DNA from: Candidatus Micrarchaeota archaeon
GTDB lineage: Archaea > Micrarchaeota > Micrarchaeia > Anstonellales > Bilamarchaeaceae
Assembly (NCBI GenBank): GCA_040754495.1
Contig: JBFMCO010000015.1
Location: 1-35,218 of the forward strand
DNA: 35,218 nucleotides
Direction of reading: 5' to 3'
Shown here: one piece after another, positions 17,446 to 22,485 of the stretch
Layout: the number at the start of each line of letters is the position of its first letter
How positions within the stretch are numbered: position 1 is the first letter of the stretch
Position numbers and translations under genes: made by a program
The notes under the pieces: model-generated
Database searches by the model: none
Told to the model about the DNA's origin: nothing
The model's input: only the letters and a program-made list of their open reading frames with translations

Positions 17446-18522
17446 ATGGGCATCCAGGAGAAGCTGAAAGAGCTTGAAGACGAATTGGCCCGGACGCAGA
17501 AGAACAAGGCCACCGAGTATCACATCGGAATACTCAAGTCCAAGATAGCGCAGCTCCGGCGCGAGCTGATTTCTCCGAAAAAGCACGGAGCGAGCGCGGG
17601 CGGCTTCGACGTCAGGAAGAGCGGGGACGCGACCGTCGCCATGATAGGGCTGCCGAGCGTGGGCAAGAGCACCCTGCTCAACAAAATCACCAATGCTGAG
17701 TCCAAGACCGCTGCTTATGCCTTCACCACCCTCAAGTGCATACCCGGGATAATGGATTATAAGAACACGAAAATCCAGGTGCTTGACCTTCCGGGAATCA
17801 TAGAGGGCGCGAAGGACGGCCGGGGACGGGGGCGCGAGGTGATTGCAGTCGCGAGGGGTGCGGACCTGATACTCGTCCTCATCGAGGCCGCGAACCCGAA
17901 GCAGGCGAGGGTCATAGAGAGCGAGCTCTACGGATTCGGCATAAGGGTGAATTCCGAGCGGCCGGCCGTGTCGATATCGAAACAGCTTCGCGGCGGCGTC
18001 ACCATAAACTCGACCGTCCATCTCACTAAAGTAACCCACAGGGAGATTCTCGCCGTGCTCAACCAGTACAGCATCTTCAACGCCATCGTGGTGCTGCACA
18101 AGGACATAACGATTGACGAATTCATAGACGCGCTGGAGGGGAACCGGGCGTACATCCCTGCCGTATACGTGCTCACAAAGGCTGACCTTGTCCGGGAGAG
18201 GCCGAAGCTCCCGTACCAGTACGTAGCGATTTCGGCCGAGAGCGGCTCAGGCATAGACGAGCTCAAGAGGGAGATTTACGACAAGCTCGCGCTCATACAC
18301 GTATTTACCAAGAAGCGCGGGGAGGCGGCCGACCTTGAGGAGCCCCTCGTGGTCCGCAGGGGGATAACGATGGGCGAGGTGTGCGAGAAGCTCCACCGCG
18401 ACCTCAGGAAGGAGTTCCGCTACGCCCTCGTGTGGGGCAAAAGCGTGAAGCACCAGCCGCAGAGGGTGGGGCTCGAGCACGTGCTCGCGGATGGCGACAT
18501 AGTGCAGATAATAAAAAGATAA
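17446..18522 (+). CDS. drg: DRG/OBG-family ribosome-associated GTPase with TGS domain
   Basis: TQKNKATEYH, GLPSVGKS (G1), YAFTT (G2), DLPG (G3), TKAD (G4), VGLEHVLADGDIVQI. Confidence 0.93.
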   Translation: MGIQEKLKELEDELARTQKNKATEYHIGILKSKIAQLRRELISPKKHGASAGGFDVRKSGDATVAMIGLPSVGKSTLLNKITNAESKTAAYAFTTLKCIPGIMDYKNTKIQVLDLPGIIEGAKDGRGRGREVIAVARGADLILVLIEAANPKQARVIESELYGFGIRVNSERPAVSISKQLRGGVTINSTVHLTKVTHREILAVLNQYSIFNAIVVLHKDITIDEFIDALEGNRAYIPAVYVLTKADLVRERPKLPYQYVAISAESGSGIDELKREIYDKLALIHVFTKKRGEAADLEEPLVVRRGITMGEVCEKLHRDLRKEFRYALVWGKSVKHQPQRVGLEHVLADGDIVQIIKR

Positions 18523-18531
18523 CTGCCCGGC

Positions 18532-19536
18532 TCAGGGGGGCAGGAAGTGGTACGTGCCGAGCGAATACCTCGCGATTCCTTCCGGGTACGCGGCCACGGA
18601 GCTGGTCACGATGGTGACGTCCCTGCCGCTCGTCCCGTAAGGAAGCGTCAGGCCGCAGTCCGAGCAGTTCACTATATCGAAAGCGAACATGTCGCTCCTG
18701 TAAGCGACGCTCAGGCTCGCGGGGTCGGCCGGGTCAGCCCATATGCGGCCCTCCACGTTTTCTATGGTGGACGGGGTGGGGTTGCGCGCCGGAAGCGCGA
18801 AATAGTTCACGCTGGCGCCGGTGCCGGAAAGCGCGTTCTTCACGGGCATGTAGTCCGCCGGGTCGGTCACGAGATAGACGGTCTTCTGCGTCTCCTCCGG
18901 GGTGCGGCCGACCGGGTTCATTACCTCGAACGTAACCCTGCGCACGCTCTTGCCCGCGACAGTTTCGGTGGTCCCGTTTATCGCATGCACCTGCCAGACC
19001 GTGGCATCCGAGGTGGACGGGATGTTGTACGCCTGGCCCTCCGAAAACGGCTCCGTGACGAACCTCCGGAGCTGGATGGCATCGAATGCCGGGCTGATGA
19101 GGAAATTGTATTCGTTCTCAAACACCTTTATGACCTGCCGGTGGATGGCGAGCCTTCCGCGCGTGAGGTCGTCCTTGGGAATCTGCATCGCCCCGCTCGA
19201 TATGTGCGTGAACTCCCCGTCCTGGGAGGTTATGTGGTCCACGCAATCTATGGGCGTGAGGCTGTAGCGCATGTTGTCGACAACGCCGAGGTTCGGCATC
19301 TGGTAAGCCTCAGTCGGGCCGTAGTGTACGCTCCCGATTCCGGGCGTCGTGCACACCCCGCCATCGGGCCCGGGGCCCCCGTCTCCGCCCCCGTCGCCGG
19401 AATGCGTGCCGTCTTCCCCGCTGCACCCGATTAGCGCCACAAGGGCCATGCCCGAGAGCGCAGCGCGCAGCGGCCTCCTCGCCGGCTCGTGATTCGGTTT
19501 CCCCCCCACCGTATCATGCAAAACTAGCTTTTTCAT
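18532..19536 (-). CDS. Predicted lipoprotein of unknown function with G/D-rich linker
   Basis: ATG 19536 lies 22 nt from a TTTTAAA box; hydrophobic stretch ends in LIGC; followed by a GDGGGDGGPGPDGG linker. Confidence 0.7.
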   Translation of the reverse strand: MKKLVLHDTVGGKPNHEPARRPLRAALSGMALVALIGCSGEDGTHSGDGGGDGGPGPDGGVCTTPGIGSVHYGPTEAYQMPNLGVVDNMRYSLTPIDCVDHITSQDGEFTHISSGAMQIPKDDLTRGRLAIHRQVIKVFENEYNFLISPAFDAIQLRRFVTEPFSEGQAYNIPSTSDATVWQVHAINGTTETVAGKSVRRVTFEVMNPVGRTPEETQKTVYLVTDPADYMPVKNALSGTGASVNYFALPARNPTPSTIENVEGRIWADPADPASLSVAYRSDMFAFDIVNCSDCGLTLPYGTSGRDVTIVTSSVAAYPEGIARYSLGTYHFLPP

Positions 19537-19604
19537 ATGAGAATATCGCACTAAAGACTTTAAAAGGCCACAGGGAAGGGCAAAAAATTTAAAACTTCGG
19601 CGAC

Positions 19605-19622
19605 ATTTAGGGTAACCTAATT
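19605..19622. promoter_or_regulatory. Putative DtxR/MntR/SirR-family operator upstream of sod
   Basis: Inverted repeat TTAGG-GTAA-CCTAA at 19607-19620, just downstream of TTTAAAA (about 19590-19596). Confidence 0.5.
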
Positions 19623-19637
19623 CGAAGAGGTGTGAAT

Positions 19638-20246
19638 ATGCATGAACTAGGAAAGCTGCCATACTCGTACGACGCGCTGGAGCCGTATATAGACGCGAAG
19701 ACCATGGAGATACATTTCAGCAAGCACCACCAGGCATACGTGAACAACCTGAACGCCGCCCTCGACAAGCACCCCGAGCTGCACAAGAAAAGCCTCGAGG
19801 AGCTGCTCTCAGGCCTCGACAAGGTGCCTGAGGATATAAGGACCGCGGTAAGGAACCACGGCGGCGGGCATGCGAACCATACCTTCTTTTGGGGGGTTAT
19901 GGGCCCAAATGCAGGAGGTGAACCAGAGGGGAACGCCGCGGACGCTATTAAACAGAGTTTTGGCGGCTTCGATAAATTTAAGGAAGAGTTTACGAAAGCG
20001 GGCTTAACAAGATTCGGCTCCGGCTGGGCTTGGCTTGTAATGGATAATGGCAAACTGGCTGTTATGAGCACTCCAAACCAGGACAGCCCTTTCATCGAAG
20101 GAAAGAAACCGATACTTGCGATAGACGTCTGGGAACATAGTTATTACCTAAAGCACATGTGGAATAGGGCGGCTTACATAAACGATTGGTGGCAAGTTGT
20201 AAATTGGAAACAAGTAGAGCGAAATTACAAACAAGCGATGGGGTAG
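19638..20246 (+). CDS. sod: Fe/Mn superoxide dismutase (Mn/cambialistic-type signature)
   Basis: [43 protein letters not shown] and DVWEHSYY motifs; GAGGTG SD before ATG 19638. Confidence 0.95.
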
Positions 20247-21080
20247 CTATCTGCCGTTGTTTAGCCAATTTTTTACTGCGTCGCTTTTTTCTCCTTTTAA
20301 TTTTGTAGTACTGATATTCTCGAAAAACCTTCGCACAAATTCTTTTTTATAAATTCTCAAATGATATGCTTTTTTCCTCACGAAGCCATCTTTTCCGAGG
20401 AATGCTGCTTGGGTGGAGTATCGGGCAGTGATGCCAAGCTGGTCATTCAAAAGAGTTCTTATAAGTTCTAGATATTTGTAATTTGTACAGCAGATATCCA
20501 GGCATATTTTTGGGGTTTTTCTAGCCTTTTCTTTAATGATTTTAACGCAACCTTCGGCATCAAAAAAGCCTTCGATAAATTCGAGCGAATTTTTGTAGTG
20601 ACTGCCTTTTGCAATAAGATTTGATAACAATCCAATGTCGCCCCTTATTTGCCGGAATAGAAAATAAAGTTGAAGGTTTCCGATATTTACAAACCACACA
20701 TTACGGCGCCGGTTAATATAGTTCTTGACCTTGTTGCGAGAGCATATCGATAATTTTATCGTGAACTTTTTCGTAAAGTCTTTTTCACCGCTGATGTTTA
20801 TCAGATGCCGGTGCCCTTTCTTCCAGTAGTAAGGGCATCCATCGCCTAGTAACGCTCCTAATACATAAAATAACTCGGGCGTGTCCTTAAGCTCGCCCCT
20901 TCTCCCGTATGGATTGGAGACACCCGAGTACCAATCATTGAGTGTCCCTTTCGGAATATGGAACTCGGCATTGATATTATCTACTGTCTCGTTTCTAGAA
21001 AGACCAGTTTTTTTAAGTTCATTGAGCTTATCGAAAGCATTTATTCTCAATTCATGATTAATTCTAACGTTTCCGTCCAC
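20247..21080 (-). mobile_element. Free-standing double-motif LAGLIDADG homing endonuclease with N-terminal HTH-like region
   Basis: Motifs YVLGALLGDG and FIEGFFDAEG. GTG start after GGGGAT SD; own stop. Three of four hand-counted 60-nt lines were 28-37% GC (one 53%), against visibly GC-rich flanks. Confidence 0.88.
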
Positions 21081-21216
21081 TGTTCATCCCCCAGTATCGC
21101 ACCAGGCTTTCGCCATTTATTAGCTTAGGCAGACCTCATTTCCCGGCCAAGGATTTTGTTACATGAAGTGGGCGGTGGGACCAGGTCGGCCTCTTCTACA
21201 AGGACGCCATGCGCCG

Positions 21217-22485
21217 CTAAAGCGCCTTCATCCTTTTCCAGAACAGGCAGTGCGCGGGCCTCCAGGCGACCTCCACGAGGGCAAGTAGCAGGATGGCTAC
21301 GAGATACACGAGCAGGAAGCCCGCGAAGTAGAGGAAGATGCCCAGCACCGGGATGAACATCACGACCATGAGCACTATATAGGCCGCGAAATAGAACACC
21401 ATCATTGGTATCGAGGCCAGGAGTATCATCACAAGCAGGATGAAGTCGAACACGATGACTTCGAGCGGATTTCTCCGGACCAGCGAAAGCCCGCCCTTCA
21501 GCGAATCGATGATGCCGCGGTTTTCCACAGCAAACCCGTACCTCCAGAACTGCGTGAGGAACTCGTAGAGGGCCCCTGCGAGCATGAGGTATACGATGAA
21601 GAACAGGTAGGCGGCCATCAGGCCGACCATGAGACTCGCGCCCCCTGCGCCCGGCCCGAGCGCAACATAGAGGACTGCGATGACCGCTGCTGCCGGAACC
21701 AGCATGAGTATCCTGAATGCCGCGTCCGCCACGGTATAGGACAGCGTCCTGCCCTTCTGGGAAATGAGTGTTTCTGCCATCGAGTATTTCCTGCCGCTCA
21801 GCATCGCGTCCGTCATCGTGTAGGCCGCGGCCTCGAAGGCGTTGTTCACCCAGAAGATTACGAAGTAGCCGGCCAGAATAACCGCAGCCATGAGAATGAT
21901 GCCCACGATGCCTCCGCCGAGAGAGGCTGTCCCGAACACCAGCGCCAGTGCGAGGAGAAGCATGATGATGAAGGCTCCGACAGAAACCACTAACTTCATC
22001 AGGCCGAGCTTGAGGAGTTCGATGTAGTATTGCTTGAAGTTCGCTCGGACGAAGTCCCACCAGCCAAGGAGCGGGACCTTCATGTTTTCTATAAACTCGT
22101 CTTCCTCCTTGTCGGGGGGTTTCGGGGCGGGAGGTTGTGCGGTTTTCGGCTGGGGCGTAGTAGGGGCTGGAGCCGCTTTTTGTTCGGACGCTTTCGGAGC
22201 CGGGGCCTGCGCAGGAAGCTGGGCGGGTTTCTGTGCAGCGGGTTTTGCCGGCGCAGGAGCGGCTTCCTGAGGCCCGGCTTCTGGTGGCGCCGGCTTTAGA
22301 GCCGATGCCGGCGGCCGGCTGCCGGATGCCGGAGACGGGATGCCTGCCTGCGCCGTCCCGGAGCGCATTACTGCCGGCGGCTTCGCCTTGGGGCGTGAGG
22401 GTTGTTTCGCAATGGTCGGCGTGGCCAGCTCGAATTCCCCCTGCTTCCTTGCAGGCTTTTTCCGAGAATCAGGATTTTCAGCCAT
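21217..22485 (-). CDS. Membrane protein with about 130-aa Pro/Ala/Lys-rich disordered N-terminus and multi-TM C-terminal domain
   Basis: Low-complexity PAPAKPAAQKPAQ... followed by 6-7 hydrophobic segments; TATA 22 nt upstream of the ATG. Confidence 0.8.
   Translation of the reverse strand: MAENPDSRKKPARKQGEFELATPTIAKQPSRPKAKPPAVMRSGTAQAGIPSPASGSRPPASALKPAPPEAGPQEAAPAPAKPAAQKPAQLPAQAPAPKASEQKAAPAPTTPQPKTAQPPAPKPPDKEEDEFIENMKVPLLGWWDFVRANFKQYYIELLKLGLMKLVVSVGAFIIMLLLALALVFGTASLGGGIVGIILMAAVILAGYFVIFWVNNAFEAAAYTMTDAMLSGRKYSMAETLISQKGRTLSYTVADAAFRILMLVPAAAVIAVLYVALGPGAGGASLMVGLMAAYLFFIVYLMLAGALYEFLTQFWRYGFAVENRGIIDSLKGGLSLVRRNPLEVIVFDFILLVMILLASIPMMVFYFAAYIVLMVVMFIPVLGIFLYFAGFLLVYLVAILLLALVEVAWRPAHCLFWKRMKAL

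Follow-up and report, generated by a model that had tools for sequence, protein, structure and literature searches.

A putative mobile cassette of a free-standing LAGLIDADG endonuclease gene and a replacement superoxide dismutase gene end in a Micrarchaeota genome

To our knowledge, nearly all homing endonucleases described from the chromosomes of cellular prokaryotes belong to introns or inteins, and free-standing endonucleases that spare an essential target by means of a spare, cut-resistant gene end have been described mainly in fungal mitochondria. The gene hybrids formed there by mORFs affect atp6 in Allomyces macrogynus, atp6, atp9, cox2 and nad3 in Glomus sp., atp9 in Rhizopus oryzae and cox2 in Mortierella verticillata (Beaudet et al., 2013, PMC3630166). 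Phylogenies of these hybrids group the native C*-terminus with its relatives and show the inserted tail to be foreign (PMC3630166).

A comparable arrangement is evident in the window analyzed here, a stretch of 35,218 nucleotides of contig JBFMCO010000015.1 from a Candidatus Micrarchaeota archaeon (assembly GCA_040754495.1), where a LAGLIDADG endonuclease gene adjoins the gene for Fe/Mn superoxide dismutase (sod). We suggest, with a probability of about 0.8, that the segment from 20139 to approximately 21135 is a mobile cassette of about 1 kb, comprising the endonuclease gene and a replacement 3' end for sod; that the enzyme cleaves, which sequence it targets and in what order the events took place are what we infer from the comparisons below. 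Residue and codon numbers of sod are, unless stated otherwise, counted from the GTG at 19632, which places them two above those of the initial annotation of this DNA, which counted from the ATG at 19638. The locus comprises the following features:

19582..19637, + strand: sod upstream region, with an A/T-rich TATA-like box AAAAAATTTAAAA at 19582-19594 and a Shine-Dalgarno sequence GAGGTG at 19627-19632 (functions predicted from the sequence)
19638..20246, + strand: Fe/Mn superoxide dismutase gene sod, intact (Pfam Sod_Fe_N and Sod_Fe_C)
19638..19856, + strand: native, genus-type 5' part of sod (GC3 ~0.77; closest to that of G021, an endonuclease-free genome of the genus)
19857..19871, + strand: recombination breakpoint zone, codons 76-80 from 19632, in the NHGGGHANH codons (maximum chi-square)
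19872..20138, + strand: foreign sod tract, read as co-converted donor DNA (identities, GC3 ~0.46, C-part tree, AU test)
20139..20246, + strand: putative cassette-borne replacement sod tail, codons 170-204 and stop (orphan starts equivalent to codons ~170-177 in 11 related loci; GC3 0.39)
20154..20174, + strand: recoded stretch H-M-W-N-R-A-A in place of Y-Q-N-R-R-P-E (codon alignment)
20247..21080, - strand: free-standing single-chain LAGLIDADG homing endonuclease gene, 277 aa (Pfam LAGLIDADG_3, motifs, AF2 and Foldseek)
21081..21135, - strand: region upstream of the endonuclease gene, taken up to the approximate right boundary of the low-GC insert, with an SD-like GGGGGAT at 21086-21092 and a TATA-like TAATAAAT at 21115-21122

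The sod reading frame matches both Pfam families (Sod_Fe_N, 7.6e-31; Sod_Fe_C, 8.9e-40), as well as the NCBIfam models for Mn-SOD and Fe-SOD, the latter two under their equivalog cut-offs. Its translation holds H28, H83, D165 and H169, which we take, after E. coli MnSOD, to be the four metal-ligand residues. The product has 202 aa when read from the ATG at 19638 and 204 aa with the GTG at 19632; the ATG appears the likelier start, since the Shine-Dalgarno sequence overlaps the GTG, in which case the codon numbering of the initial annotation would be right. The stop codons of sod and the endonuclease gene touch on opposite strands, TAG being directly followed by CTA at 20246/20247, as had been noted earlier. 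Because the sod frame is uninterrupted and the endonuclease frame lies on the other strand, the endonuclease is free-standing, residing in neither an intron nor an intein; its start codon is a GTG, preceded by the TATA-like and SD-like elements listed above. Upstream of sod lie a Drg-type GTPase gene (17446-18522) and a 376-aa ORF, and downstream of the endonuclease gene a gene for a DUF7847-like membrane protein (21217-22485, - strand) and a TrpY-like gene. The native genes on both sides of the low-GC segment (Drg upstream, DUF7847 and TrpY-like downstream) are syntenic with those of genus mates, and the locus, being flanked by the Drg GTPase and the TrpY-like gene, is therefore archaeal and chromosomal, not mitochondrial.

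Base composition sets part of the locus apart. The endonuclease region, described earlier as low in GC, has a GC content of 0.36-0.42 (~0.38) against 59.5% for the genome, where the median gene GC3 is 0.77; to its right, GC climbs to 0.62 from ~21160. Within sod, the earlier hand counts of GC3 proved exact, with 61/77 for codons 1-77 vs 63/125 for codons 78-202 when counted from the ATG at 19638 (Fisher p = 6e-5). By segment the values are 0.77, 0.46 (37/80) and 0.39, and the best likelihood changepoint falls at codon ~83-91. When the last 105 informative codons were contrasted with the preceding 80, window sizes that were picked after the data had been seen, the drop at the 3' end of sod ranked 2nd among 1043 ORFs of at least 180 codons, and a GC3 of at most 0.44 occurs in just 2.4% of all 105-codon windows of the genome. 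This contrast replaced a whole-gene changepoint ranking (sod 131/1199), which was swamped by low-to-high changes due to over-extended starts. The initial annotation had called for a comparison with endonuclease-free relatives; these lack the drop, the GC3 of sod being flat in G021 (0.76, 0.79, 0.79) and G011 (0.82, 0.85, 0.88), both of the same genus, as well as in G006, a further endonuclease-free congener.

Similarity changes along the gene as well. The window's sod was aligned with five sod genes from the genus and with 34 from other phyla that lie beside an endonuclease gene. Over residues 1-79 its amino acid identity is 0.81 to G021 and 0.78 to G011, against 0.50 and 0.51 over residues 80-204; to L039 (Nanoarchaeota) and L027 (Woesearchaeota) it rises from 0.63 and 0.61 in the first part to 0.75 and 0.69 in the second. 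Nucleotide identities run parallel, 19638..19856 being 77% identical to G021 and 60% to L039 and of the genus type at 9/12 informative sites. The foreign tract (19872..20138) shares 52% amino acid identity with G021 vs 72-73% with L039, L027 and L029, and the sod tail (20139..20246) 82% with the tail of L039 vs 46% with that of G021. Maximum chi-square analysis of 60 informative nucleotide sites places the breakpoint at codons 76-80, that is, at 19857-19871, and so coincides with the break that had been located near 19869. Separate phylogenies of the two halves, also proposed in the initial annotation, gave incongruent trees. In the C-part tree the window and G006 group with L039 in a clade of Woesearchaeota, Nanoarchaeia and CPR sequences (SH-aLRT 95) that is separate from G021, G011 and G008, and the C-part data reject the clade G000+G006+G021+G011 (AU p = 0.002). 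The best N-part tree includes this latter clade, and the N-part data reject the clade of the C-part tree (AU p = 0.004), the clades for both tests having been named once the trees had been seen and the N-part tree (80 columns) being poorly resolved. With congruent trees rejected, sod is a true mosaic, native in its first ~80 codons and foreign in the rest.

The comparisons yielded no close donor for the foreign part, the best C-part match being 76% at the amino acid level; synonymous sites are saturated in all sod comparisons, and the closest endonucleases carry other sod tails. The search for a donor was extended to P0004 and P0002, the endonucleases most similar to that of the window, and none was identified there; their sod tails (YYLRYFNRRDEY and YYKKWGPARADY) are unlike the tail in the window, so that the histories of endonuclease and tail are incongruent. 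Tails and endonucleases have probably recombined among themselves.

A search with the endonuclease protein found 283 relatives, mostly in DPANN archaea and some in CPR bacteria. The loci were then scanned using one genome per species, which gave 40 loci, and the 36 with real similarity (37-69% identity) were counted; the other four are partial matches (24-43%) to other LAGLIDADG genes. The expectation that homologous endonucleases always neighbor sod holds throughout: sod adjoins the endonuclease in 36/36 close homologue loci, and the same arrangement is present on two more contigs (L067 and L068) fetched via the most similar proteins. The two genes are convergent in 34 of the 36, with a median stop-to-stop gap of 0 (range -62 to +27), which makes the abutting stops of the window a family trait; the exceptions, L061 and L062, are co-directional and belong to Thaumarchaeota. 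The hosts of the close homologues are DPANN archaea, Bathyarchaeia, Thaumarchaeota, Methanosarcinales and three CPR bacterial phyla.

At 11 of these 36 loci an additional, incomplete sod 3' end is present past the endonuclease gene, on the sod strand (E 1e-5 to 3e-12). These orphan tails start at the equivalent of codons ~161-180 and extend to the stop codon, and their translations open with A-Y-Y-L, Y-Y-L-K-Y-Q-N-R-R or Y-Q-N-R-R (e.g., YYLKYQNRRPEY... in L045 and L055, AYYLQYK... in L053). The orphans keep the canonical YYLKYQNRRPEY, and the resident allele at the same loci is recoded. The canonical motif is also found in endonuclease-free sod genes of the order, with Y-x-N kept in G008, G011 and G021, and resident endonuclease-linked copies are often rewritten at the motif (e.g., YYVRYTYNRAAY, YYKKWGPARVEY); the resident sod genes of the window and of L039 are likewise rewritten, codons 175-181 of the window's gene completely so in the codon alignment. 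Since the orphans begin there with the canonical motif and the residents are often rewritten there, the insertion point would lie at about codon 170, in the region of the D-x-W-E-H-A-Y-Y signature. Junctions and recoding together suggest a target that spans W-E-H-A-Y-Y-L-K-Y-Q-N-R-R, and the stretch H-M-W-N-R-A-A at 20154..20174, which falls within the right half of this site, is a candidate for the change that confers immunity. The canonical Y-x-N is absent from 22/37 endonuclease-linked alleles and kept in 15/37; recoding is therefore not universal, and in these cases it could be synonymous or lie elsewhere. In the window, a tblastn search with 40 sod queries (E <= 0.05, resident sod masked) found no orphan sod 3' end, in agreement with the initial annotation, and neither an orphan tail nor a second sod fragment was found in the genus mate G020, a Micrarchaeia MAG (JBNLBN01; locus L050 of the scan). 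As the window has no orphan tail, its insertion point and its approximate right boundary at ~21135 are set by analogy.

The initial annotation had interpreted the endonuclease as part of a selfish element without intron or intein that cuts sod near the HGGGH codons and repairs it with its own sod 3' part. The linkage and the mosaic agree with an element that is specific for sod and travels with a replacement sod 3' part; the location of the cut does not stand in the same way. A cut at or near the HGGGH codons (~19869), with all of sod from codon 78 onward belonging to the cassette, would account for the breakpoints in composition and similarity at codons 76-80 in the window and 85-90 in G006, as well as for the altered residues in linked alleles (NTGGGTSNH in G020, NHGGGFINH in L039). 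However, 11/11 orphan tails, with their A/YYLKYQNRR starts, begin ~90 codons downstream, and the cut site at the HGGGH codons is thus probably wrong. Nor do these codons qualify as the site of resistance: across codons 74-83 the window shares 27/30 nucleotides with the endonuclease-free G021, all three differences being synonymous, and it is therefore not protected there, the rewritten codons being 175-181 instead. We consider a cut at HGGGH unlikely on these grounds. Given orphan starts at about codon 170 and an HGGGH region that is not recoded, we assign 20139-~21135 to the cassette and interpret 19872-20138 as a tract of co-conversion, the distal end of which is the more plausible explanation for the break at HGGGH.

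The cassette could have reached its present state as follows. The endonuclease would recognize and cut the conserved sod sequence coding for W-E-H-A-Y-Y-L-K-Y-Q-N-R-R in an empty allele, and a cassette-bearing copy would serve as the template for repair of the break. The repaired sod would then end in the donor tail, whose codons right after Y-Y are rewritten and would hence offer no target, and the recipient's own tail would be shifted past the endonuclease gene to become an orphan. In the window, repair would also have reached upstream of the insertion point and brought in ~270 bp of donor sod, the tract being resolved in the near-identical NHGGGHANH codons (19857-19871), the longest such block; the outcome would be a functional-looking mosaic sod with codons 1-~78 native and ~80-204 foreign. 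The orphan tail would later have been lost from the window, probably along with a metallophosphoesterase gene. Such a gene directly follows sod in both G006 and G021, and it is absent between sod and DUF7847 in the window. The only homologue elsewhere, on contig C26, is 38-42% identical and probably a paralogue, which points to a loss at the sod locus, and the orphan tail and the metallophosphoesterase gene were probably deleted together.

Is the endonuclease likely to be mobile? The 277-aa ORF matches Pfam LAGLIDADG_3 with 36.2 bits (cut-off 22.5), and a search of NCBIfam matched no model. Its first motif is LGALLGDG with D80 and its second IEGFFDAEG with E176; across 21 family members G79-D80-G81 and D174-A175-E176-G177 are invariant, including the acidic residues D80 and E176, and the family alignment has 42 invariant columns. 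An AF2 model (pLDDT 90.7, pTM 0.85) together with Foldseek recovers the pseudo-dimeric alpha-beta-beta-alpha-beta-beta-alpha fold. The best Foldseek match is I-DmoI (E 1e-8, TMt 0.65), the best solved structures being I-DmoI, PI-PfuI and I-Tsp061I (TMt 0.61-0.68, probability 1.00), and PI-PfuI is also the sole match in the PDB at the sequence level (E 0.0016). Residues ~9-52 form three helices in the model, from which this N-terminal domain may be HTH-like; a Pfam search of the N-terminal 68 residues (E <= 1) found no family. Judged by motifs and predicted fold, the endonuclease looks active, cleavage being its presumed function.

An alternative scenario is that the LAGLIDADG protein has been domesticated as a partner of sod, for instance as an HTH-bearing regulator or a repair factor, and is no longer mobile. 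Its strict adjacency to sod, the conserved N-terminal three-helix domain and the 42 invariant columns could all be understood in this way. We nevertheless regard domestication as very unlikely, given that the close homologues occur sporadically (in 2/40 genomes of the genus and 5/401 sampled genomes of the phylum), that most sod genes of relatives do without a neighboring endonuclease, and that the composition is foreign, with orphan tails at related loci. A family that spans two domains at 47-69% identity and keeps both catalytic acidic residues also argues against it.

A more complicated history is apparent from G006. Its sod is itself a mosaic, with an amino acid identity to G021 of 0.91 in the N part and 0.54 in the C part, a breakpoint at codons 85-90 and a tail reading YYLKHMSNRAGY. 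To judge from these sequences, G006 looks like either a resistant allele whose endonuclease has been lost or the result of an older conversion that happened separately. As this mosaic comes with neither an endonuclease nor a GC3 drop, several events must have shaped the history within the genus. G006 also lends something to the idea that the 3' part of sod was exchanged through ordinary horizontal transfer with homologous recombination, the endonuclease having hitch-hiked or being there by coincidence, since here a mosaic exists without an endonuclease gene. Yet this would leave unexplained why 36/36 homologues adjoin sod and why tails are duplicated at one codon position, and G006 is readily understood as a cassette that lost its endonuclease; we hold ordinary recombination to be highly improbable. 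That the sod contigs of two organisms were joined in the conserved HGGGH block is scarcely credible, for although the genome is a metagenome bin of 72 contigs, 80% complete, and the breakpoint lies within highly conserved DNA, the high-GC genes on both sides of the low-GC segment are syntenic with genus mates, so that a chimera would need two compensating misjoins, and the same architecture recurs in ~38 independent assemblies.

The putative mobile cassette extends an mORF-like strategy to archaea and to bacteria of very small size, where it affects a single enzyme at a single codon position. The window supplies a clear co-conversion tract, in which ~90 extra sod codons, two of the four metal ligands included, came from another lineage, and G006 is a congener resembling an endonuclease-free, resistant end state. 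We further propose, at about even odds, that the cassette acts as a natural "cut-and-rescue" gene drive of prokaryotic chromosomes that moves between DPANN archaea and CPR bacteria, and whose long co-conversion tracts shuffle the active-site-bearing halves of sod between phyla and repeatedly build functional inter-phylum chimeras; in that case one genus would display two stages of the homing cycle, in the window and in G006, with (i) a resident cassette and (ii) a resistant, endonuclease-free allele. Selfish elements can thereby create mosaic housekeeping genes that mislead single-gene phylogenies, and the proteins constitute a candidate family of natural meganucleases with a defined and highly conserved putative target.

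Searches of the literature on sod together with LAGLIDADG or homing endonucleases found no description of the cassette, which seems undescribed in the literature searched. At the level of the protein, I-DmoI, I-Tsp061I and PI-PfuI share with the sod endonuclease the two-motif monomeric fold and the acidic residues that end both motifs. The genes for these enzymes lie within rRNA introns or inteins, whereas the sod endonuclease is free-standing, has an extra N-terminal helical domain of ~65 residues and is only 18-24% identical to them. At the level of lifestyle, the seg and mob endonucleases of phage T4 (e.g., mobE; PMC2790892, PMC2988022) are likewise free-standing, outside introns and inteins, and spread, as proposed here for the sod endonuclease, with conversion of neighboring target-gene DNA, the resident allele being presumed cleavage-resistant. 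They are GIY-YIG or HNH enzymes located between phage genes and are not known to duplicate a gene end. The sod endonuclease differs in being a LAGLIDADG protein that lies in a cellular chromosome, among cellular genes, and carries a replacement gene end; it has neither a GIY-YIG nor an HNH domain and its surroundings are not those of a phage genome.

The closest described analogue of the sod cassette is to be found in the mORF gene hybrids of fungal mitochondria (PMC3630166). In both, an endonuclease ORF (for mORFs mostly LAGLIDADG) is placed near the 3' end of a conserved gene, and in both a foreign C-terminus is supplied in frame while the native C*-terminus is left as a downstream duplicate. 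The differences are those of setting and orientation: mORFs are mitochondrial, the sod cassettes lie in prokaryotic chromosomes of archaea and CPR bacteria and target sod, and the mORF endonuclease follows its host gene on one strand or is even in phase with it, in contrast to the opposite-strand, convergent orientation at 34/36 sod loci. The window departs further in that its native tail is gone and its foreign tract reaches ~90 codons upstream of the insertion point. It thus has no displaced native C*-terminus, no same-strand ORF and no mitochondrial context, but it does share with the mORF hybrids a foreign C-terminal part that continues in frame from a native core, in this case that of sod.

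A mosaic sod like that of the window, yet without any endonuclease gene, is present in one genus mate (G006), whose sod locus (L002) comprises:

L002 1492-2109, sod of G006
L002 2111-2926, metallophosphoesterase gene of G006

The C-terminal part of this sod is foreign, with the tail YYLKHMSNRAGY; the breakpoint falls at codons 85-90, and GC3 along the gene is flat and host-like. We regard G006 as a candidate for the "resistant, endonuclease-lost" stage of a homing cycle. A metallophosphoesterase gene directly follows sod both in G006 and in a second endonuclease-free genus mate, G021, but is missing from the window (20247-21216, compared with L002 and the G021 locus L005), where the endonuclease gene takes its slot ahead of the DUF7847 gene. 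The sole homologue in the window's genome, on contig C26, is 38-42% identical.

Comparison with G021 also bears on one recoded stretch of sod:

window 20154-20174, recoded stretch of sod

Here the conserved N-R is offset by one codon (H-M-W-N-R-A-A in the cassette vs. Y-Q-N-R-R-P-E in the canonical motif), and the rewriting therefore looks like a shift in motif register rather than a set of point substitutions. Five sod-adjacent endonuclease homologues (L041, L049, L052, L058 and L059), with open frames of 220-252 aa, lack the N-terminal helical domain of about 65 residues, and the neighbouring sod alleles keep the canonical Y-Q/N-N-R motif in all five. The domain may contribute to recognition of this stretch; alternatively, the domain-less copies may be decaying.

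Displaced sod tails lie beyond the endonuclease at three loci:

L027 1965-2054, orphan sod tail
L029 2906-3022, orphan sod tail
L059 3265-3354, orphan sod tail

As the distance from endonuclease start to orphan tail is 650-1950 bp, these cassettes must hold extra DNA, possibly cargo genes. At a further locus, a sequence partially matching residues 8-65 of sod (L056 5464-5646, E 6e-5), on the opposite strand just upstream of the resident sod, may represent a second, N-terminal sod fragment.

Upstream of the window sod lies an overlapping frame:

window 18532-19662, reverse strand, 376-aa ORF (first possible start codon taken)

The overlap with the sod start arises only from this choice of start codon. 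Around codon 48 the GC3 of this frame rises sharply, from 0.27 to 0.84; the gene therefore probably begins close to the MKKLV methionine, which would leave a divergent promoter region of about 100 bp between the two genes.

The orientation differs in two Thaumarchaeota loci:

L061 3305-4768, sod-adjacent endonuclease homologue locus
L062 2750-4083, sod-adjacent endonuclease homologue locus

In both, sod and the homologue share a strand, with the homologue downstream, an arrangement nearer than the convergent one to the layout of fungal mitochondrial mobile ORFs (mORFs).
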